This document shows positions 629-63,157 of a stretch of 64,000 nt of DNA, in pieces. The DNA comes from Escherichia coli. GTDB lineage: Bacteria; Pseudomonadota; Gammaproteobacteria; Enterobacterales; Enterobacteriaceae. Below the pieces are notes generated by a model. That model saw only the letters and a list, made by a program, of their open reading frames with translations, did no database searches and was not told where the DNA came from. Numbering within the stretch: the stretch's first letter is position 1; every line of letters begins with the position of its first letter. The stretch is from NCBI RefSeq assembly GCF_030013205.1, contig NZ_CP122648.1, one strand, 5' to 3'. A program made the position numbers and the translations under genes.

Positions 629-1630
629 TTACTCTACTGGCTCTTTTTGTTCAGTGAATGCCATGTTAGCTATCGGGTTAAACCTCATGGCATCCGCCAG
701 ATAGTCGGGGGAAAAATGCGCATAAGTCATCGTTTGCTGGATAGTCGCATGTCCAAGAATCCGTTGTAATGTAACGATATTCCCACCGTTAATCATAAAG
801 TGTGTGGCAAATGTATGACGCATGACATGCGTAGCCTGCCCCTTCGGTAAATCCGGCTTCACCTCCTGAAGGATCTCCCGGAACTTCAGATAATCAACCT
901 GATACAACAACCCCGTCCGGCGGGTCTTAATCAGCGGCACGACCGAATCAGCCACAGGAACCGAACGGGATTTTCCGTTTTTGGTGTTAAAGAACGTCAC
1001 CCGGTTGCCAATGATGTGCTCTCCACGTAGTTCCGATGCTTCACTCCATCGGGCACCAGTAGAAAGACACAGAATGGCAACACGACGCGCATCACCCTCC
1101 AGTCGCTCAAGAAGCCGCTCAATCTCATCATCAGAAAGAAAGGCCATCTCTGTATTCTGAATTTTTAGCTTGCGTATACCGCGTACAGGGTTCGGGTTGT
1201 GAAAGACCTCAGCTTCAATCAGCACCGTGAACATGGTAGACAGAACGCACAAGTCACGATTAATGCTGGATGGCATTAAGCCGGCCTGTAATTTCTCTGA
1301 CCGATACTCAAGCATAAATTTTTGCGTCATCTGGCTGGCACGCGGATCTCCCATTTCACGAATCACTTTCTCCATCCGGATCCTGTAGGTATCACCGTAA
1401 GCCTGGTTACGGCCATCAAGCATCCACCATATATCAAGCAGCTCTGATAATCTCCGTCGATCAGCAGGTTTAGCCAGCCATGGGTTGTTATGGAAATTCT
1501 GTAAAATATGTTCTTTGAAGGCCTCCGCACTCCCTTTCCTGACAAAAATTTTACGTATCCGTTTGCCGTACGCCCCTTGGGGCCTGATATCGAGCAGCCA
1601 TCGCCCATCATCCATCTTTCTGATCGACAT
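629..1630 (-). CDS. int: tyrosine recombinase, P2-type phage integrase family
   Basis: 333 aa; N-terminus and C-terminal HxxR...Y catalytic region (HTFATHFMINGGNIVTLQRILGH...YAHF) resemble P2 Int; ATG and TAA verified on minus strand. Confidence 0.85.
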   Translation of the reverse strand: MSIRKMDDGRWLLDIRPQGAYGKRIRKIFVRKGSAEAFKEHILQNFHNNPWLAKPADRRRLSELLDIWWMLDGRNQAYGDTYRIRMEKVIREMGDPRASQMTQKFMLEYRSEKLQAGLMPSSINRDLCVLSTMFTVLIEAEVFHNPNPVRGIRKLKIQNTEMAFLSDDEIERLLERLEGDARRVAILCLSTGARWSEASELRGEHIIGNRVTFFNTKNGKSRSVPVADSVVPLIKTRRTGLLYQVDYLKFREILQEVKPDLPKGQATHVMRHTFATHFMINGGNIVTLQRILGHATIQQTMTYAHFSPDYLADAMRFNPIANMAFTEQKEPVE

Positions 1631-4715: not shown

Positions 4716-4934
4716 TCAGGCGGAAAGCTGCGTCACCTTCAACGCCCTGAAATGTGTCATTCCCAGCTCTTCCAGCCCTTCGGCTGCGCGGCGTATGGCT
4801 TCGCCCGGTCCCGTTCCGTATACCGTTGCATGTGCATGTTTGGTTAACCCACGTTTATTAACGGCATAACCCAACACAAAGAAACGTTTTTCACCACTGC
4901 CATTATTTTTACGGGATGTTGAACGGGTTTTCAT
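4716..4934 (-). CDS. hypothetical small protein, 72 aa
   Basis: ORF track; start overlaps upstream stop (ATGA), suggesting translational coupling. Confidence 0.45.
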   Translation of the reverse strand: MKTRSTSRKNNGSGEKRFFVLGYAVNKRGLTKHAHATVYGTGPGEAIRRAAEGLEELGMTHFRALKVTQLSA

Positions 4935-5119
4935 TTCTTCACCTTTACCACTGATGCTGTGAGTTCTTCTTCTGGCAACTGATATTTCGGCGCAATTTCT
5001 TCCGTATACCTGATAGCGTCCCTTGCCGCTTTTCCTTTTGATTTATATTTATATGTGGTCCGGTAGTTTTCTTCCTCTCCTGTTACCACATTACGCAATT
5101 TAATATGAATCTCGTACAT
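4931..5119 (-). CDS. hypothetical small protein, about 62 aa (start at MYEIH)
   Basis: ORF track 4931..5149; internal ATG preceded by GGAGGGG and placed 2 nt after upstream stop. Confidence 0.4.
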   Translation of the reverse strand: MYEIHIKLRNVVTGEEENYRTTYKYKSKGKAARDAIRYTEEIAPKYQLPEEELTASVVKVKK

Positions 5120-5121
5120 CG

Positions 5122-5304
5122 TTACCCCTCCATGATTTTTACTGCGCATTTGTGGGTTAATCGCCCCTGTTCATTCGTGCGGCTGTACTCCATGCGGCTG
5201 GCAGCACGCAGGGCATCATCACAGGTCTGATATTCCCTGACATGAAAAAACTGACGAACGTCGCCGCTCTGGCAGTTAATCAGGGTGATAAGGAGCTTAA
5301 ACAT
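5122..5304 (-). CDS. hypothetical small protein, about 60 aa (MFKLLITLINCQ...)
   Basis: ORF track 5122..5382; ATG overlaps stop of upstream 57-aa ORF (ATGTTTAA). Confidence 0.4.
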   Translation of the reverse strand: MFKLLITLINCQSGDVRQFFHVREYQTCDDALRAASRMEYSRTNEQGRLTHKCAVKIMEG

Positions 5305-5470
5305 TGCACGCCTCCCGGATACGAATACGGGCAACAGAGACCAGACGGGATGCCGGAAGCAGGGCGCGCGCTTCGCGCTCACTGGCGGCGGTAACGGTAT
5401 GAAGGCGGATATTTTTACCGTGGCACTGCATAAAGCGCCAGATAAAATCAGGGCGTGTTGATATAGCCAT
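5297..5470 (-). CDS. hypothetical small protein, about 57 aa (MAISTRPDFIWRF...)
   Basis: C-terminal part of track ORF 5297..5824; ATG preceded by AAGGAG; upstream part of the track ORF judged noncoding. Confidence 0.4.
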   Translation of the reverse strand: MAISTRPDFIWRFMQCHGKNIRLHTVTAASEREARALLPASRLVSVARIRIREACNV

Positions 5471-5594
5471 TTTGGCGGCTCCTTTGTCTAATTTACGGAG
5501 TCTCGCCAGCACGCTGCTAAACATGGTGGCGGGACGTAACAGGGTTAGCAGACTGGTGACAAAGAAACCAGCAGGCCTTACGGCCTCCCCATTA

Positions 5595-5718
5595 CGCCCC
5601 GCCATAATACGGGAAAGGGTGGTATTACGGGCACAAAAAAACCGCATTACGGAAATATAGCGGCTACCCGCTTTGTCAATCAGGCTGCTAAACCCGGCAC
5701 CCGCTTTATGAGGTGCGG
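5595..5718 (-). ncRNA. conserved three-block noncoding element, copy A (hairpin, then T7-terminated block, then ATTATGGCGGGGCG on minus strand); candidate sRNA or leader attenuator
   Basis: blocks CGCCCCGCCATAAT, GCACAAAAAAACCGC and CAGGCTGC.AAACCCGGCACCCG.TT..TGAGGTGC recur in same order and similar spacing at 59946-60075. Confidence 0.4.
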
Positions 5719-5865
5719 GCAAACGATACGCCATGACAAAAAAGCGAGTCAAGCAATATTGCAAATTATTTTTGCGTGATTGCGCTGAGTAATTGATTTT
5801 TAAGAGTAAAAAAGCCATAATCATTTCTGCCTATTATTTCTTATTGTTGGTTTCAGGTGCACTAA

Positions 5866-5925
5866 ATGCACATCCTTGACTGGTTGGCTCGCTAGCTTTA
5901 GCGAGCTTCTTTTTTGCTCTGCAGC
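5866..5925 (+). terminator. two stem-loops (GTGCA-CTAAA-TGCAC; GCTCGCTAGCTTTAGCGAGC) followed by TTCTTTTTT; intrinsic terminator or sRNA 3' end
   Basis: seen in sequence; no convincing ORF on plus strand upstream. Confidence 0.45.
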
Positions 5926-6377
5926 CAGTACCCGGCCTCCTTCCCTCACATGTAGTCATGTGCTCATTCCAGTCAGGTGGATAATGCTGTATTACCGGAC
6001 ATCCGGTTATGATGTTTAAAGCGTTTGTTTGTTTATGCCACGTGGAGAATATACCCACGCCGCCATTACTTGTATTTATCATAACAGTTCATCCAATTCG
6101 GTTAATGTAACCGGAATAACTCAATTTCATACACTGTAAATAAATGCTGATTTTAAACTTAGCTCCTTGGAATATATTTCTTACGTGTGACGTACAGGTG
6201 AAAATATCCCTCTGATAGTCCATTTTCTTTTATTGGGTCACATCTTTTTACTCCGGTTCCCTTAACAAGGGTAGAGCATCTTTTAAACCATGAATGCATC
6301 TTTGGTTAAGTGATGTTTCTTATTGAATGAAATGTTTAGGCGCATATCGCGCCATGCTGACTATAAAGTGAAAATAA

Positions 6378-6599
6378 TTAAGCCTGAAAACGTTGTTGTT
6401 TTCTTTCTTCTATCCAGTCGATAATTTCCTCTTCAACCCATGCAACCGCACGAGGGCCTATTTTTATTGGTTTGGGGAATATATCCGATTTTATATCTTC
6501 GTAAATTCGAGCTCTCGATCTCCCTGTGATTTCAATGACTCTGGGGAGTCTTATTAATTTTTGAATCCGCCTTTCGCTGGTCTGTGAGTATGCTGACAT
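6378..6599 (-). CDS. alpA: AlpA-family transcriptional regulator / excisionase-like (prophage CP4-57 AlpA type)
   Basis: 73 aa; helix-turn-helix region ...RLPRVIEITGRSRARIYEDIKSDIFPKPIKIGPRAVAWVEEEIIDWI... typical of AlpA. Confidence 0.8.
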   Translation of the reverse strand: MSAYSQTSERRIQKLIRLPRVIEITGRSRARIYEDIKSDIFPKPIKIGPRAVAWVEEEIIDWIEERKQQRFQA

Positions 6600-7117
6600 A
6601 TTGGCCTCCTGTATATGCTGAACACTTTACGTTAGCTCACAGTGGGAGCATGTAAGATCTCGCGGTCGTCTGCGGGACGAGAAAAATCATAAACAACGAA
6701 AAGCGGATTTGTAAATCAGGTCGATTTTTAGACGGGGTTGACATGGACAGTTAGATTTGTTCCATGCGTGAAATATACATTTAGAGCCACTTTAAACCAC
6801 CAGAAAGCGACAAAGAATAACAAGTTAGTGCCAGAAAGGTTTGCTGACTTACCCTTTTAGGCACCAGAAAAGCCCTTTCAGGTCGGTGTAATGCTTGTGA
6901 ACGCTGAAATAGTGGATTCTGAAAACAAAAAAAGAGTTGAAAATGTGATGTGCATCAAAAAATAATATCGATAAAACAGTTTGATTTTTATTTTCTTATC
7001 AAAAGCACTGGTTGATTATGGGAAATGCATTATAAATCAAATGGATATATCTATTTTTTTAGGTTAAAAATCACCAGGTGCTTTTAGTGAGGTCTTATTC
7101 TATTGATTTTAAAAGAT

Positions 7118-7152
7118 AAAAAAATCGGCGTGTCCACATATTGTCCACGCCT
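7118..7152 (-). terminator. intrinsic terminator downstream of integrase (hairpin GGCGTG...CACGCC plus T7 on minus strand)
   Basis: seen in sequence about 45 nt after int stop. Confidence 0.5.
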
Positions 7153-7198
7153 TGAGTTTAATTCAGCCGCTTGGGGTAGTTTAGTTTGTTGAGTTGAT

Positions 7199-8461
7199 TC
7201 AGTTTGTTTCGTTAGCCCATTTAAAATCATAGGGGGCAATATATGCCGTCTTGCAGGTGTCGAGATAATCAGCCCACCATTGCAACATTCGGCGGCGTTC
7301 CTGCATATGTTCAGCTCTGTGAACGTATGCAGCCCGGACACTGCCTCTTTCCCTGTGACTCATCTGAAGCTCAACGGCTTCTCTTGTCCACCTGCCTGAC
7401 TCTGTCAGCGCCGAACAGGCCATGGCCCTGAATCCGTGACCACAAATATCTTTTTTGGTGTCGTATCCCATGTGGCGTAATGCCTTGTTAATGGTGTTTT
7501 CGCTCATCGGTTTTATCTGGTAATGGTCGCCGGGGAAAATAAACACTTCATCACCGGATATATTTCTTATATCGTCAAGAAGCTGCATGGCCTGAGTGGG
7601 TAAAGGGATGGCGTGAGGGGTCCCCATTTTCGTTCCACGATATGAATATTTTACGCCTTCTATTTTTTCGCGTTCTGCTGGTATTACCCACATTGATTTA
7701 TCAAAATCAATTTCATTCCAACGAGCAAAGCGCAATTCACTTGAGCGAATAAAAATTAATAAATTTAATTTTAGTGCAAATTGCGTTAATAACCGTCCAT
7801 TCATCTTATGGTGGTAATCATTTATTTTGCCAAGTAATTCAGGTAATCGCTCAAGGGGAAGAGCGGGGCGATGTTTGGTTTTATTGGTTTCTATTGCACC
7901 GTTCAGTTCCTGTGCTGGATTGTATTTAATCATTCCATTCTGTACAGCGTAGCGCATAATGGCGTTCATTCGCTGCTTGTTACGAGATGCTGTCTCAAGC
8001 ACTCCTTTATCTTCCATTTTGCGTAAAGGAATCAGTAGATCCATGGTTGTGATCTCGTTAATTGGTCTTTTACCAAGAATGGGGAAGATGTGGTTTTCCA
8101 GGTCTTTTAAGACTTTTTGTGCGTGCAATTCGCTCCAGCCTTTTTTCCGGCTGTGCCACTCTCTGGCAACGTCTTCAAAAAGCACTATTTGAGGTTTTGG
8201 AGTGTGCAGTGGGTCAATGCCTTTAGCCAGGCTCGCCAGATATTCATCACGAGCGTTCCTTGCCTGTGCAAGTGTTACGGCAGGATAAATGCCTAAAGCT
8301 CGGGTCGTTTCTTTACCGTTGATAACCTTGCGAAAGCGCCAGTATTTTGAGCCGTTGGGGTGAACATAGAGATACAGCCCTTTCCCGTCACGAAGTTTTT
8401 TAATTTTGTTGTTGTCCTTATCTGGTTTGGCGTTACGTACAGCTACATCAGTCAGTTTCAT
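7199..8461 (-). CDS. int: P4-type (tRNA-associated) tyrosine integrase
   Basis: track ORF 7199..8503 is labelled '+', but the reverse complement from 8503 reads TTG GTT CGA ... ATG AAA CTG ACT and plus strand at 7199-7201 is the stop; likely ATG start at 8461 (MKLTDVAVRNAKPD...). Confidence 0.9.
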   Translation of the reverse strand: MKLTDVAVRNAKPDKDNNKIKKLRDGKGLYLYVHPNGSKYWRFRKVINGKETTRALGIYPAVTLAQARNARDEYLASLAKGIDPLHTPKPQIVLFEDVAREWHSRKKGWSELHAQKVLKDLENHIFPILGKRPINEITTMDLLIPLRKMEDKGVLETASRNKQRMNAIMRYAVQNGMIKYNPAQELNGAIETNKTKHRPALPLERLPELLGKINDYHHKMNGRLLTQFALKLNLLIFIRSSELRFARWNEIDFDKSMWVIPAEREKIEGVKYSYRGTKMGTPHAIPLPTQAMQLLDDIRNISGDEVFIFPGDHYQIKPMSENTINKALRHMGYDTKKDICGHGFRAMACSALTESGRWTREAVELQMSHRERGSVRAAYVHRAEHMQERRRMLQWWADYLDTCKTAYIAPYDFKWANETN

Positions 8462-8639
8462 TATGTTGCTCCTCCAGACGGGTACAAATAAAAATCGAAC
8501 CAAGCATACCCGTTTTTATACCCATTTTAATATGGGCTTCAGGCAAATTTAACGAGAGATAACGAGACAATGGAAGAGGTTTAACTCATTGAAAATCAAT
8601 GGGTAATGGTTTTTTCTGAGAGATTGCGAGAAGTTGCGA

Positions 8640-8714
8640 TGGTGTCCCCTGCAGGAATCGAACCTGCAATTAGCCCTTAGGAGGGGCTCGTTATATCCAT
8701 TTAACTAAGAGGAC
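8640..8714 (-). tRNA. argW: tRNA-Arg (anticodon CCU)
   Basis: reverse complement reads GTCCTCTTAGTTAAATGGATATAACGAGCCCCTCCTAAGGGCTAATTGCAGGTTCGATTCCTGCAGGGGACACCA with T-arm GGTTCGATTCC and CCA end. Confidence 0.9.
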
Positions 8715-8789
8715 AATGCGGCATGAGTATACCCGCTAATGGACTGCGGGGTAAGTACGCTGCCGCTCGATTGCTTAAACCCTCGCCAT

Positions 8790-39546: not shown

Positions 39547-39737
39547 AGCGACCTCCCTTAACGTGGTGTTGCCGCTATTCTAGATTGTACGTTCCCTAAT
39601 TCCAACTAACAGCTCGCTCTGTGCGAAGAGTGAAAATTGAACTTTCAATAGTTGTTGAACTTTCATACATCCAATGTGAAAATTCATACGTTCATAATAG
39701 TTAAAATTTAAAATATTGTATATCAGGTGAATAAAGC

Positions 39738-40760
39738 ATGGGAAGAGATATAACGCTGTACCCTAAAAAAGCAACTAGAAACGAACTTAAAAATTACCTT
39801 GAAAATTTAGGTTTTAAAAGGTGTAAACATTTGTGGGAATGGCCCCAAGGAACGTTGAATTACTCTTGGTTTGATGATACGGACTTCAAATCTACAGATG
39901 GAGTTTCGGCTGATATATATCCTGTTTCAAATGACGAATTACACATATCTGGTAATAAATGGGCATTGCATGTGCGTAATTTATATAGCGCTAGTTGGCA
40001 TGATGTAAAAATGCTTAATGATGTTCTAAAAGGCGCAAGGAGTCTTTTTGGTGGAACACTTATAGGTGATTATGGGAAAAATAGGTACGCTCCTCTATGG
40101 AAGGATTCTAGTAGTCCGATCAGTCGTGGCATTTCTTCAATATTTAATCATGTCCATCATGAGATTTCCGCTGTTAAACATGCCTTACCTGAACCTTCTA
40201 TTAAATTAAACCTACCGGAAGATGGCGGCTTATCCGAATACTTTGATTACATGCAATGTATGGATCCCAGTAGAGTTATATATAATGGATTAGTACCTTT
40301 TGCGGTTGCTATGTTTGAATACTTTTTCTCTAGAGCTTTTCAAATACTTATAAAGTACGATCCTTTCGCAATAGCAAAAAGAACATCGTATAAGCAAAAA
40401 GTTGATTTTGATATTCTGCTTGAGATAGAGAAAGGAAATATTTCAATAGAAAGTGTTATTGCAAGAAATTACACTTTTCAAAACTTAACCCACCTAAACA
40501 AAGCATATAAAGAGTGGCTGGATATAGATGTGAGAGCGATTCTTTATAAGAAAAAAAGAATTGGAAAATCAGTTGATTTTCTTGAGAATCGAATTTCTGA
40601 AATCATACAATATAGACATGGGATAGTTCATCACTTTGAGTTGGATAGGACCTTAAATCGGGATGGATATATTCATATATTAGATGCGCTAGAAAAAAGC
40701 ATAATTGAATTTATCCATTACATAGAAGGCAAATACAAATTTAAATTAAATGCGTATTAA
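39738..40760 (+). CDS. hypothetical protein, 340 aa, strongly AT-rich accessory gene between ogr and D; no recognisable domain
   Basis: ORF track; opposite strand to flanking late genes; own AT-rich upstream region with direct repeats; hairpin terminator after stop. Confidence 0.6.
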   Translation: MGRDITLYPKKATRNELKNYLENLGFKRCKHLWEWPQGTLNYSWFDDTDFKSTDGVSADIYPVSNDELHISGNKWALHVRNLYSASWHDVKMLNDVLKGARSLFGGTLIGDYGKNRYAPLWKDSSSPISRGISSIFNHVHHEISAVKHALPEPSIKLNLPEDGGLSEYFDYMQCMDPSRVIYNGLVPFAVAMFEYFFSRAFQILIKYDPFAIAKRTSYKQKVDFDILLEIEKGNISIESVIARNYTFQNLTHLNKAYKEWLDIDVRAILYKKKRIGKSVDFLENRISEIIQYRHGIVHHFELDRTLNRDGYIHILDALEKSIIEFIHYIEGKYKFKLNAY

Positions 40761-40788
40761 GCAATCAACCTTACATAGGGATGACAAA

Positions 40789-40815
40789 GTCCGCTTCTGA
40801 CACGGAGCGGACCGT
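40789..40815. terminator. hairpin GTCCGCT-N10-AGCGGAC between convergent 340-aa gene and D
   Basis: seen in sequence. Confidence 0.5.
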
Positions 40816-40880
40816 CGTTTATGTTTAATTCTATACTGTAAACTTGCCAGTTTAAGTTTGAGCTAATATGTCTAAGTTGC

Positions 40881-47733: not shown

Positions 47734-47903
47734 TTTAATGCTGGCCACTCATACCCTCATACCTGGTAATAAGTGGCCAGTCTTAACACTCACCATTTGA
47801 TTGCACCAGTGTTAACGATTTGTTACTGGACATCAGGCACGCTGGATAGCCAGTAGAAACATACCATTAAAATTATTACAATAATTGGTCACATGATTAT
47901 CTT

Positions 47904-48467
47904 ATGCTGAATAATAGAGATATGAATATTAATGAACTTAAAGATTGTATTCACTATGAAGTAATCGGTAGCGAGCGTCCTTTCTCCTGGCGAAAGGCAA
48001 TTGTTCGCGCAATAAAACATAGAAGAGTTCGTTATTTATTTTGGTGGCGCATAGCCAAATACCTTTTTGATAAAGGCGGATACTGTCGGAAGATTGCGGG
48101 GAAAATAGAACGTTTCATTCTTGATAAATATAATGTAACAGTCCCTTTAACTGTAAATATAGGGAAAGGCTTTGATATTTCTTATCTCAACAGTGTTGTT
48201 ATCGGTCACAAAGTAACAATCGGTGAAAATTGTTCAATAAAACCAGGGGTAACTATTGGGCTGCGTGGTGATTTTAATGATATGGATATTGTTATAGGAC
48301 ATAATGTGACCATTGGTTGTAATGCCACCATTCTTGGTGGCAAAGTGCGTATAGGAAACAATGTCACAATAGGTGCTCATGCATTGGTATTGCATGATAT
48401 TCCAGATGATTCAACATTCATCACTAAATTTCAGTCTGAAGTTATCTGCTCGTCCTCCCGCACATAA
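47904..48467 (+). CDS. hexapeptide-repeat acyl/acetyltransferase; AT-rich accessory gene, possible surface-polysaccharide modification
   Basis: 187 aa with repeated [LIV]GxxxxIG hexapeptide motifs; 3' end overlaps tfa by 37 nt convergently. Confidence 0.7.
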
Positions 48468-49048
48468 CCCTGATTCATCAGCTCTGGCCATACGATATCC
48501 GGAGCTGTACTGGTGTCAATTCTACTCACTAATACTCTGTATTTTCTCCAGGAATCCAGTTGTGAATTTTCCTCGTTTGTTGCTATTTCAAGATTAACTG
48601 CATCCTGCAGAATTGCGATGTTATCTGTTGCTTCCTGGATCAACCTTGCCTTTTTCTCTTCCGCTTCCCGTATCCGAAACAGTTTTTCTGCTTCCTCATC
48701 CTTCACCCAGGATACGCCGTCCCACTTCTGATACTCCCCTGCTGGCGACAACCAGGTGACATTCTCTGGTAGCGGTCCGGGTTCAGAAATAAACAACGCG
48801 TCCCCCGATGCCACGTCATAGACCGTTTTACCACGATGGTCTTCAACAATATTCCACGATTCATTTTCACTGTTAAAAACTGCCACAAAGCCAGCAGGAA
48901 TTTCCGGTGGGGCGATATCTGTAGAATTGGCTGGCAGCCCTGTATGAGGTGGAATATATGCGTCACCTTCACCAATAAACTCATTAGTTCCGGCCAGCAG
49001 GTTATAAATTTTTACAGTACGTGATTGTTCACTCATTCTGAATGCCAT
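48431..49048 (-). CDS. G: tail fibre assembly protein (lambda Tfa / P2 gpG type)
   Basis: 205 aa; N-terminus [34 protein letters not shown] matches remembered lambda Tfa. Confidence 0.9.
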
Positions 49049-49400
49049 TATGCAAGCCTCACAATATAATTAAATGCGATGTTTTTAACGGTGTTTTCCG
49101 CGTTACCAGCAGCGTTAACGGTGATGGTGTGTCCATGTGAACCAATCGCAACAGAGTGCGTATGAGCGCCAATAGCTGATTGAGTGTGACGCCATACGCC
49201 CCACGGACCATCAGTGCCATTCCACTTATTGGCGAGTTTACGCATGTATACATTGCCGTCTCTCGTGATAAAACGTTGCGTGCCTGCAAAATTGCCAGCT
49301 GCAAAAACCTCAAGCACACCGACAGCATTATCTTCCGGGAAATTTTTCTCCAGTGTTGCGTTGGTGGATGTTGCTTTAGACCAGATGCCAGTGCATCAGC
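49048..49400 (-). pseudogene. H: C-terminal fragment (about 117 codons) of tail fibre protein (gpH/Stf type), 5'-truncated
   Basis: frame open from stop near 49400 to ...[19 protein letters not shown]; no start codon or N-terminal domain. Confidence 0.75.
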
Positions 49401-50033
49401 GTTCGCATACTTACCCGCGTGCGCCACGGTGTTGTCCATGTTACGGGAGGTCAGCGTCACGTCATTCATAACGCGTTCGCTGGCGTCGGTTCTGATGTGC
49501 TCCAGCCACCCCACGTTAACGTCCTGAAGCAACTTGTTGGTGCTGAAGTTGGACTCATCCGCGTGAGACGTGCCGTTGAAACCGATCATGATTCGGTCAA
49601 GCGCCACCTGTCGGGCAATCTGTGCGCTGATGCGGGACTGAAAATCGCTGTGTGCCGACCAGGCATCAAGCTGCGGATACGAAATAAACGTGTCGTAGTT
49701 CACCTGTTCGCACTGGTATTTGCGGTTTTTCAGATCAACCACGTTATTCGGGTTACGGCGTTTTGTTCCGTCATAACTGGTATTCGTGCGCGCAATCGGT
49801 CCTGTGGTATCCAGGAGGATTTTTTCGCCCTTCTGGTCGGTCACGCCGATCACGTTAATTCTTTTTGTAAATTCGGTGCTTTCCTTTGAGGCGTTTTCAA
49901 AACGCTGCTGTACCGAGGGTTCCACGGTAAATCGCGATACCAGTGCGGAAACCGGGATATTGTTAAGCGACGCCTGCTGCGCCATATAGCAACCCAGCTT
50001 GTTGCGGGTAATATCTGACATCACCAGATTCAT
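49400..50033 (-). pseudogene. N: major capsid protein gpN, N-terminal about 210 codons only, fused out of frame to tail-fibre fragment
   Basis: homology to P2 N (FTVEPSV, NKYxCEQ, IMxGFNG) ends near HAGKYANADALASG; track ORF 49059..50033 continues in a non-homologous frame. Confidence 0.75.
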
Positions 50034-53905: not shown

Positions 53906-54298
53906 CTCCTGTATCAGTCAGATAATTTCACGACGCTTTCCTGCTTATTGCCATCATCGACGGTCAGACTCTTACGCAATCCCACCGCGTTGACTGCATG
54001 TTCTTCGACGCCTCAGTGCGATTTTGACGGCCTTACCTTTCACCCCATCAAATTAGAATCCCTCACGTCTTTTTCACACTCAGCGTGAGAAATACAGCCA
54101 TTCTGTTGTGTTGCTGCGACATCGTTCAGGGGATGCTATTTACCCCCTGAAACGCGGGCTGTTCCCCCGTCACCTGCGCGCAGAAAAAACGCGTTTTTTT
54201 GTGCACGTACGGATCCTTGACGGATCCAGCCACCACGCGGGCCGGAAGTACAAAAAGTCGTTCAAAAAAATTGTGCAAACTTGTGCACTATCGTGCAA

Positions 54299-62222: not shown

Positions 62223-62429
62223 TCACCCGATAAACCAGATAACAAACGCTATCAACATCGCCCCAATAGCTGCCGGGAAAAGTCCTTTGGTATAAGCGGC
62301 GATATATTCAATGCTGAGTTCAATAAAGCGTTCTTTATGTCCCGTTAACTTGCGAAACAAATAGATCTCTATTACGCCTATCTCAATAAAAACAAGGGTC
62401 AGAATGGCGCTGATGATATGGCTGGTCAT
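62223..62429 (-). CDS. small membrane protein, 68 aa
   Basis: ORF track; two hydrophobic segments; directly downstream of cox. Confidence 0.45.
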   Translation of the reverse strand: MTSHIISAILTLVFIEIGVIEIYLFRKLTGHKERFIELSIEYIAAYTKGLFPAAIGAMLIAFVIWFIG

Positions 62430-62435
62430 TTATGA

Positions 62436-62723
62436 CTAAAGTCCCAGCCACAACAACCATGCGTCGCGGCGTTCTTTCGGTTGCTCAAAAAACGCTTTGC
62501 GCATGCCTTCGTTAAATGCTGGCAGATATACCCAGTTTTCTGATGCACGCGTCTTTACTGAACCTGGTTTCACAAAGTCAATTGTTGGTAGCTTTGCTGC
62601 GTCAATCATGGTTCTGACTGTGGATTCCTTGCGGCCGATCATCTTGGCGAATAGTTGATATGGCACCGCTTCAAGTGGATATGGTGCTACCTGAATGAAC
62701 CCCCCAAGCTCTGATTCGCTCAT
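62436..62723 (-). CDS. cox: P2 Cox-like excisionase / early-operon repressor
   Basis: ...PYQLFAKMIGRKESTVRTMIDAAKLPTIDF...WVYLPAFNEG...RRDAWLLWLGL matches remembered P2 Cox. Confidence 0.85.
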   Translation of the reverse strand: MSESELGGFIQVAPYPLEAVPYQLFAKMIGRKESTVRTMIDAAKLPTIDFVKPGSVKTRASENWVYLPAFNEGMRKAFFEQPKERRDAWLLWLGL

Positions 62724-62836
62724 TGTGGTAATCTCCCTAATTCGTTCGAATGGCTCAAAATGGCTTATATCGGCTTATTTGAGTGTTTTTATGTTTGTGC
62801 CCGATGTGGCATGTTGTGATGGAGGATATGCCCGAT
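62724..62836. promoter_or_regulatory. divergent Pe/Pc-like switch region with three GGCT repeats at 10-bp spacing (62752-62780), candidate C-repressor operators
   Basis: seen in sequence between divergent cox and C. Confidence 0.5.
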
Positions 62837-63157
62837 ATGGCATCTTTGTCAAGCATGGGTGAAAAATTTCGCCTGATTCGTGAAGCAGAAGGTATGACCC
62901 GCCAGGAGTTTGCGGATTGTGTTGGGCTGCCTTATGGGACGGTAACTAACTATGAGGTGAGGGGGAAGCAAGTAACAGAGGGTGCCTTACTTAAGGTTAC
63001 GAAACACCCTAAATTTAAGAAGTATGCTTATTGGTTATCAACAGATGAAACGATGCCGGAGGTCGGGCAAATTTCTCCGGCTCTCTCTCTTGATGGTTCC
63101 TGCAATTCGGAGGGAGATCGCGTTTCAACCGAAACAATCCAAAAATTATCCCGCTGA
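62837..63157 (+). CDS. C: P2 C-like immunity repressor (start uncertain; track ORF begins 62783)
   Basis: HTH region ...MTRQEFADCVGLPYGTVTNYE...KYAYWL...GQISPAL matches remembered P2 C; GGAGG 11 nt upstream of ATG 62837. Confidence 0.8.
   Translation: MASLSSMGEKFRLIREAEGMTRQEFADCVGLPYGTVTNYEVRGKQVTEGALLKVTKHPKFKKYAYWLSTDETMPEVGQISPALSLDGSCNSEGDRVSTETIQKLSR

Follow-up and report, generated by a model that had tools for sequence, protein, structure and literature searches.

The closest described relatives of the region studied here are the transcriptional switches of P2 and P2-like phages. In P2 (GenBank AF063097) the annotated elements run in the order C start, Pe -35, O1, -10, O2, Pc -10, -35 and cox. 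C proteins of this type, which are ~100 aa long, bind two direct repeats that flank the -10 or the -35 of the early promoter Pe (PMC1904268, PMC2995052). Half-site length and spacing are 8 and 22 bp for P2, 8 and 26 bp for P2 Hy dis, and 10 and 34 bp for WPhi; in both P2 and WPhi the repeats flank the Pe -10 (PMC1904268, PMC2995052). P2 Cox protects at least 70 nt of DNA. Its cox-boxes (consensus TTAAA(G/C)NC(A/C), starts 10-11 bases apart) overlap the -10 and -35 of the lysogenic promoter Pc, and its targets hold at least six boxes, with DNA bending only where there are more than four (PMC3936717). More generally, recombination directionality factors bind head-to-tail direct repeats one helical turn apart, and P2-like phages have their Cox/Apl operators over the lysogenic promoter and their immunity operators over the lytic one (PMC7498355). 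For Apl of phage 186 and other such factors, cooperative binding requires three or more adjacent sites, and the same protein is also the excisionase (PMC7498355).

We analysed a cox/C intergenic region near the end of a 64,000-nt stretch of Escherichia coli DNA (hereafter the window). The order of elements annotated in P2 is reproduced in the window, as are the gene order (cox, C, int), a spacer of about 110 bp, face-to-face promoters (predicted in the window), a Pe -35 (predicted, TTGACA) within the first codons of C, a direct-repeat pair bracketing the Pe -10 and boxes phased at 10 bp over the counterpart of Pc. The two differ in the operator, which is predicted to be TGCCCGATRTGGCAT in the window (15 bp, 31 bp apart) and is GTTTAGAT in P2 (8 bp, 22 bp apart). 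They also differ in the core of the boxes (AGCC in the window, A(G/C)NC with a longer A run in P2), in the number of boxes (three good ones against at least six in P2 targets) and in the phage backbone, which is P88-like (Xuanwuvirus) and inserted at pdxB in the window, P2 being a Peduovirus. WPhi resembles the window in having longer half-sites about three helical turns apart around the Pe -10. However, its operator sequence is another one, and WPhi Cox reads a 12-nt direct repeat rather than cox-boxes (PMC5009727). Phage 186 shares with the window the direct repeats one turn apart between face-to-face promoters (PMC7498355), but Apl is a distant outlier in sequence with seven sites, and 186 uses a CI-type repressor together with CII where the window has a P2-type C and no cII. 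What appears to be new here is the operator sequence and the cox-box variant, set within the known layout of a P2-type switch.

The cox/C switch and its prophage

The intergenic region (62724-62836, 113 bp) has an ORF on either side, one reading leftward (62436-62723) and one rightward (62837-63157). It is most likely the control region of a P2-type bistable switch belonging to a defective P88-like (Xuanwuvirus) prophage inserted at pdxB. The leftward ORF is cox (minus strand, 95 aa), whose product matched Pfam PF10743 (Phage_Cox; 1.3e-22, above the family cut-off) and the P2 Cox structure PDB 4LHF (3.5e-26, residues 17-95), and shares 53% identity with P2 Cox and 42% with WPhi Cox. It belongs to the Cox family of winged helix-turn-helix proteins, which are about 90 aa long. 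The ATG of cox is preceded at 9 nt by a Shine-Dalgarno sequence evident on inspection (GGGAG, 62733-62737, minus strand), which is kept in all relatives compared. Directly downstream of cox lies a hydrophobic ORF of 68 aa (62223-62429, minus strand), which belongs to phrog_14475 (function unassigned), has no Pfam match and is conserved in all close relatives.

The rightward ORF is the C gene (plus strand, 106 aa). Its product matched the P2 C structures 2XCJ and 2L49 (4.4e-16) and phrog_147 (2.9e-29), with 32% identity to P2 C and 40% to WPhi C, and its start codon is the RefSeq-annotated start at an identical locus. The hallmarks of a P2-type C are all present, namely a length of ~100 aa, an N-terminal helix-turn-helix, homology to P2 C and the first place in a C-int operon. 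The second gene of this lysogenic operon encodes an integrase (63254-64000, plus strand, running past the window end; Pfam Int_N 3.1e-23, Phage_integrase 3.4e-11); in an identical locus int is 1005 bp long and is followed by pdxB.

The first-pass annotation had described a P2-type immunity switch that appeared intact within a defective prophage. The gene matches bear out the first part of that description, and alignment to related phage genomes bears out the rest at the level of sequence. The match to P88_4B11 (NC_049391) runs from about 37298, at the att core, through to the end of the window, but phage coordinates of about 4860-16256, with about 11.4 kb of late genes, are missing. At the deletion junction (47738-50033) a truncated P2-family capsid gene (49059-50033), which covers profile positions 4-207 of 327, stands directly next to a gene for tail-fibre assembly (48431-49048); a hexapeptide acetyltransferase gene lies at 47904-48467. 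Conversely, ~1.3 kb of the window (39582-40871) is missing from P88_4B11. This segment contains an ORF of 340 aa (39738-40760) that may be a cargo or defence gene; its only Pfam match is HEPN-like, weak and below threshold.

Within the switch, the window differs from P88_4B11 by one base in cox and one in the intergenic region (62817, which lies between the promoter-distal operator and the -10 of Pe), and both the cox and C ORFs are full length. The whole switch is common to P88_4B11 (99.8% identity) and PhiR44_2 (98.7%). The locus was found in 290 of 5426 complete E. coli genomes, in 191 of them at 99% identity or more, so that the operator and box sequences proposed below are testable for an immunity class present in about 5% of complete E. 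coli genomes. A prophage without a third of its genome thus keeps an intergenic switch one base from that of a deposited phage genome, and could still confer immunity or respond to or interfere with related phages.

Two sets of direct repeats

The first-pass annotation had drawn attention to three GGCT-containing decamers in the interval, which it took for C operators overlapping the early promoter. A second and stronger direct repeat, absent from that account, lies within the same interval ~50 bp away from the decamers. It consists of two 15-mers, TGCCCGATGTGGCAT at 62798-62812 and TGCCCGATATGGCAT at 62829-62843, which are identical at 14 of 15 positions and lie 31 bp apart start to start; none of 300 shuffles of the region equalled this. 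This pair is likely to be the C operators. Two direct repeats 22-34 bp apart that bracket the Pe -10 or -35 are the described pattern for such operators (PMC1904268), and the 15-mers, 31 bp apart, bracket the predicted Pe -10, TATCCT. The promoter-proximal copy (62829-62843) is the counterpart of P2 O1, occupies the Pe spacer and extends over the start codon of C (62837). The promoter-distal copy (62798-62812), the counterpart of P2 O2, begins 11 bp downstream of the Pe -10 and would occupy about +4 to +18 of Pe. Among ten haplotypes with the window type of C, variation was found between and just outside the 15-mers and never inside either. A third operator-like site in the window (31344, two mismatches) falls outside the prophage and within chance expectation (0.31).

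The predicted Pe reads leftward and is the sole good promoter match in the spacer by consensus scan (TTGACA, an 18-nt spacer, TATCCT). Its -10 (TATCCT, 62828-62823, minus strand) overlaps the Shine-Dalgarno sequence of the C gene (GGAGG, 62821-62825, opposite strand), and the same position holds TATACT or TAAACT in relatives. Its -35 (TTGACA, 62852-62847, minus strand) is placed inside codons 4-6 of C. On the plus strand this motif reads TGTCAA, which is present in the C N-termini of the window type, the Chuche type, ev239 and PhiECO5, and in P2, despite differences in the encoded residues. Weaker forms occur in the Shae type (ATCAAG; TTGATT on the minus strand) and in one window-type variant, L029 (TATCAA). 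Promoter prediction, which had been suggested earlier as a check, called the Pe candidate with a score of 10/12, but the number of hits was that of shuffled sequence (2 sites vs 1.7) and Pc was not called at all. The scan was therefore not used alone as evidence, and the assignment of Pe rests on its positional match to the annotated and experimentally studied P2 switch.

The decamers themselves are as first described. GGCT occurs at 62752-62755, 62762-62765 and 62772-62775, a spacing of exactly 10 bp, between the divergent cox and C genes. The three boxes (62749-62778) read AATGGCTCAA, AATGGCTTAT and ATCGGCTTAT on the plus strand and TTTGAGCCA, TATAAGCCA and AATAAGCCG on the minus strand. They are joined by a degenerate fourth box, TTGAGTGTTT (62779-62788, minus strand), at a position where relatives have a clear GGCT or GGCC box (TTTGGCTATT, TTAGGCCAAT). 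The window contains GGCT-N6-GGCT-N6-GGCT a single time, where shuffles predict 0.01 occurrences, but this figure flatters the finding since the pattern was picked post hoc and, by our own arithmetic, 64 kb of sequence should hold about one case of some tetramer occurring three times in 10-bp phase. The phasing is more fairly measured by 10-bp periodic self-identity across 20 positions. This measure reaches 16/20 at 62749, and values of at least 15/20 were seen at three sites in the window against 0.15 expected from shuffles. A period scan at 62749 gave 16/20 for period 10 and 12 or less for the other periods among 7-13.

Comparison with P2 O1 and O2 did not support the earlier reading of the decamers, as in P2 these two operators lie on either side of the Pe -10, in the part of the spacer next to the C gene, and the GGCT decamers map to the Pc end. 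The predicted Pc -10, TATATC (62766-62771, plus strand), lies opposite the annotated Pc -10 of P2 (TATAAT); it is without the usual final T, and relatives have TATATA. A candidate Pc -35, TCGAAT (62746-62751), is the counterpart of the annotated ATGAAT of P2, although this assignment is uncertain. The boxes are repeated at exactly 10 bp beside cox and are aligned to the P2 Pc -10, in keeping with the repeats 10-11 bp apart that overlap Pc in P2. Against the P2 cox-box consensus, TATAAGCCA and TTTGAGCCA each match at 7/9 positions, a level reached by other sequences in the same 160 bp and common by chance, and the third box matches at about 5/9 (hand count). The best consensus matches in the Pc region of P2, TAAAAGGCA, TATAAGACA and TTAAACGCA, align opposite AATAAGCCG, TATAAGCCA and TTTGAGCCA. 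In number, the boxes fall short of the six or more per P2 Cox target, with three clear and one degenerate box in the window and four in close relatives.

Taken together, we consider it probable that the GGCT decamers are Cox boxes over Pc, that the 15-mers are C operators and that the two make up an ordinary, intact P2-type switch. These elements were read from sequence anatomy, homology, position relative to P2 and co-variation, from which binding, promoter activity and start sites are predicted. The switch would have two face-to-face promoters, Pe running leftward into cox and Pc rightward into C and int, with transcripts that overlap by about 38 nt as judged from hexamer positions. C would bind both copies of TGCCCGATRTGGCAT, 31 bp or about three helical turns apart and bracketing the Pe -10, and would thereby turn the early operon off. 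Cox would bind the GGCT boxes cooperatively and head to tail, with one protomer per helical turn, and the resulting array would turn C and int off by bending or wrapping the DNA across the spacer, -10 and start site of Pc. The map of the switch would then be corrected, with the phased GGCT repeats assigned to Cox and Pc and a different repeat pair to C and Pe.

Natural exchanges of cox and C types

The strongest evidence for this assignment is the comparison of natural swaps, in which the boxes appear to follow Cox and the operators to follow C. Cox of P88_4B11, PhiR44_2, Chuche and Shae_phiSM is 97-100% identical to that of the window. P88_4B11 and PhiR44_2 share with the window the same Cox, cox-proximal half, C and operators. 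Chuche and Shae_phiSM share the same Cox and cox-proximal half but have other C types and other operator pairs, and here, as in same-Cox loci of other C types, the C-proximal halves of the switch are unalignable. In a wider set comprising Chuche, Shae_phiSM, the four E. coli loci L005-L008 and about 40 IMG/VR loci (within L015-L053), Cox is 94-100% identical and the GGCT boxes are kept; most of these same-Cox relatives are very closely related, and the conservation of the boxes could partly reflect recent common descent. The C proteins of same-Cox phages fall into three types, with 41-48% identity between types and differing sequences in helix 3, the recognition helix. Around the Pe -10, the same two positions are taken by a different repeat pair in every C type, namely TGCCCGATRTGGCAT with a spacing of 31-32 bp for the window type, TTTCTCAnnTKAGAAA with a spacing of 24 bp for the Chuche type and ATCACATRT with a spacing of 31 bp for the Shae type.

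The reciprocal case is ev239, whose C is 75% identical to that of the window and whose Cox is only 39% identical. Its operator pair, ATTCCACATGTGACACAT and ATTCCTTACATGGCACAT, 33 bp apart (ATTCC-N8-CACAT), is related to the window pair, and its cox end carries different phased units (TTTGCARAC), e.g. TTTGCAAAC and TTTGCAGAC. Four C types have four distinct repeat pairs at equal positions, and a related C has related repeats. The box sequence tracks the Cox type rather than the C type, both across the three C types found with the window Cox and in ev239. Moreover, phased GGCT boxes persist in a locus with a Cox 74% identical (L054) though the flanking sequence has diverged, and the more distant Cox lineages all have 3-5 boxes of the form AAT[T/G]GCY in 10-bp phase at the cox end. 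The number of boxes can change by a whole unit, as is seen in two E. coli loci whose Cox and C are identical, one of which (L006:774-880) has lost exactly 10 bp and has three boxes where the other (L005:774-890) has four. The natural hybrids (three C types in combination with one Cox, and the reverse case) form a specificity-swap series for the reading of DNA by C and Cox.

It is unlikely, in our judgement, that the decamers are mere Pc architecture, i.e. phased A/T-rich curvature, UP-like elements or a slippage repeat with no dedicated binding protein. The counterpart of the Pc -10 does fall within boxes 2 and 3, the units all have an A/T run at their end (CAAAA, TTATA, TTATT), and copy number shifts by exact 10-bp units, as would follow from slippage. 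However, the conserved core is GGCT and not the A/T run, every Cox lineage has phased boxes at the same position whose sequence varies with Cox (ev239, L057, L064), and a P2 Cox footprint has been reported over Pc in this region (PMC3936717). Such architecture would in any case be compatible with Cox binding and does not exclude it. Less probable still is that the phased repeat is a product of chance, or a neutral leftover in a decaying prophage whose switch is dead. The missing late genes and the expectation of one phased tetramer in a sequence of this length fit that explanation, but the near-identity of the intergenic region to the deposited P88_4B11, the full-length cox and C ORFs, the occurrence of the locus in 290 genomes and a periodicity score well above that of shuffles all speak against it. 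We regard as most improbable of all the proposal that the decamers are C operators equivalent to O1 and O2 over the early promoter, since, although P2-type C proteins do bind direct repeats (PMC1904268) and the decamers are direct repeats within the cox/C spacer, they sit at the cox end on the counterpart of Pc and not Pe, they are constant across three C types with differing recognition helices when an immunity operator cannot be shared by heteroimmune repressors, a far better pair that varies by C type brackets the Pe -10, and known C operators are two copies 22-34 bp apart, not three at 10 bp (PMC1904268).

Some loci carry a longer repressor gene. In two E. coli loci (L008:1087-1674 and L007:1087-1674, strains SC418 and AR_0085), as well as in IMG/VR loci L026, L047 and L050-L052, the 'C' is 195 aa long and consists of two C modules joined in frame, one after the other. 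Its N-terminal half shares 74% identity with the Chuche-type C, and its C-terminal half, compared by eye with the C of Shae_phiSM, looks Shae-type; the switches of these loci have Chuche-type operators only. The second module may provide immunity to another phage type.

Operator symmetry, the attachment arm and other phased repeats

Each window 15-mer can be read as TGCC-N6-GGCA, a dyad that is not above chance (P about 0.55). Dyads in the operators of sister types are stronger, with P values of 0.024 for Chuche (TTTCTCA-NN-TGAGAAA) and 0.002 for PhiECO5 (TTCTTCACCA-TG-TGGTGAAGAA). The predicted C operators of these two types are strong palindromes, TTTCTCATATGAGAAA in Chuche (L002) and TTCTTCACCATGTGGTGAAGAA in PhiECO5 of UTI89 (L066:1140-1200). 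P2 C is a symmetric dimer that has to bind non-palindromic repeats (PMC2995052). We tentatively suggest, as a possibility somewhat short of an even chance, that each C 'direct repeat' in the P88-like immunity classes is a dyad-symmetric site of 14-16 bp, which would offer two equivalent half-sites per dimer. If true, the recognition of non-palindromic direct repeats by P2 C would be a derived special case and not a property of the family.

The published immunity class IX (PhiECO5, UTI89) was considered as the class of the window and rejected, as both C and Cox differ. No description of the window operators was found in the literature searched; the class may figure among the published classes I-VII.

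Cox must act at the att site as well as at the switch. A position weight matrix was built from ten box variants, and the whole P88_4B11 genome was scanned with it for a second cluster, expected in the attP arm. The arm between the int stop and the core falls beyond the window end. By this matrix no phased box cluster was found in the attP arm of the P88_4B11 genome, and clustering was seen only at the switch itself. One of the ten top matches, AACGGCTTAA, does lie in the arm, 17 bp past the int stop, in both P88_4B11 and an identical prophage (L011). It overlaps TTAAAGGGC, which matches the P2 cox-box consensus at 8/9 positions (hand count), and the annotated attP Cox site of P2, which carries TTTAAGGGC, is at the same relative place. 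The decamers were also considered as arm sites for Int, for which the P2-type consensus is tgTGGaCa (PMC3448106). This was rejected, as TGTCCAC repeats are found at the 3′ end of int and in the far attP arm, and not in the switch.

Lastly, direct repeats phased at 10 bp were observed at two other places in the window. At 160-189 and 233-273, GAGGTTACAG, AAGGTTACAC and GAGGTTACAG recur in 10-bp phase (16/20 periodic identity) close to inverted copies of GTAACC. A second P2-type integrase gene (629-1630, minus strand) has its 3′ end about 440 bp before these repeats, which are probably protein-binding sites in the att arm of another integrated element. At 54267-54296, TTGTGCAAAC, TTGTGCACTA and TCGTGCAAAC are likewise phased at 10 bp and are followed by the hairpin GCGCCTTATCGGCGC; they sit where homology to the phage genome ends (cos-proximal) stops.
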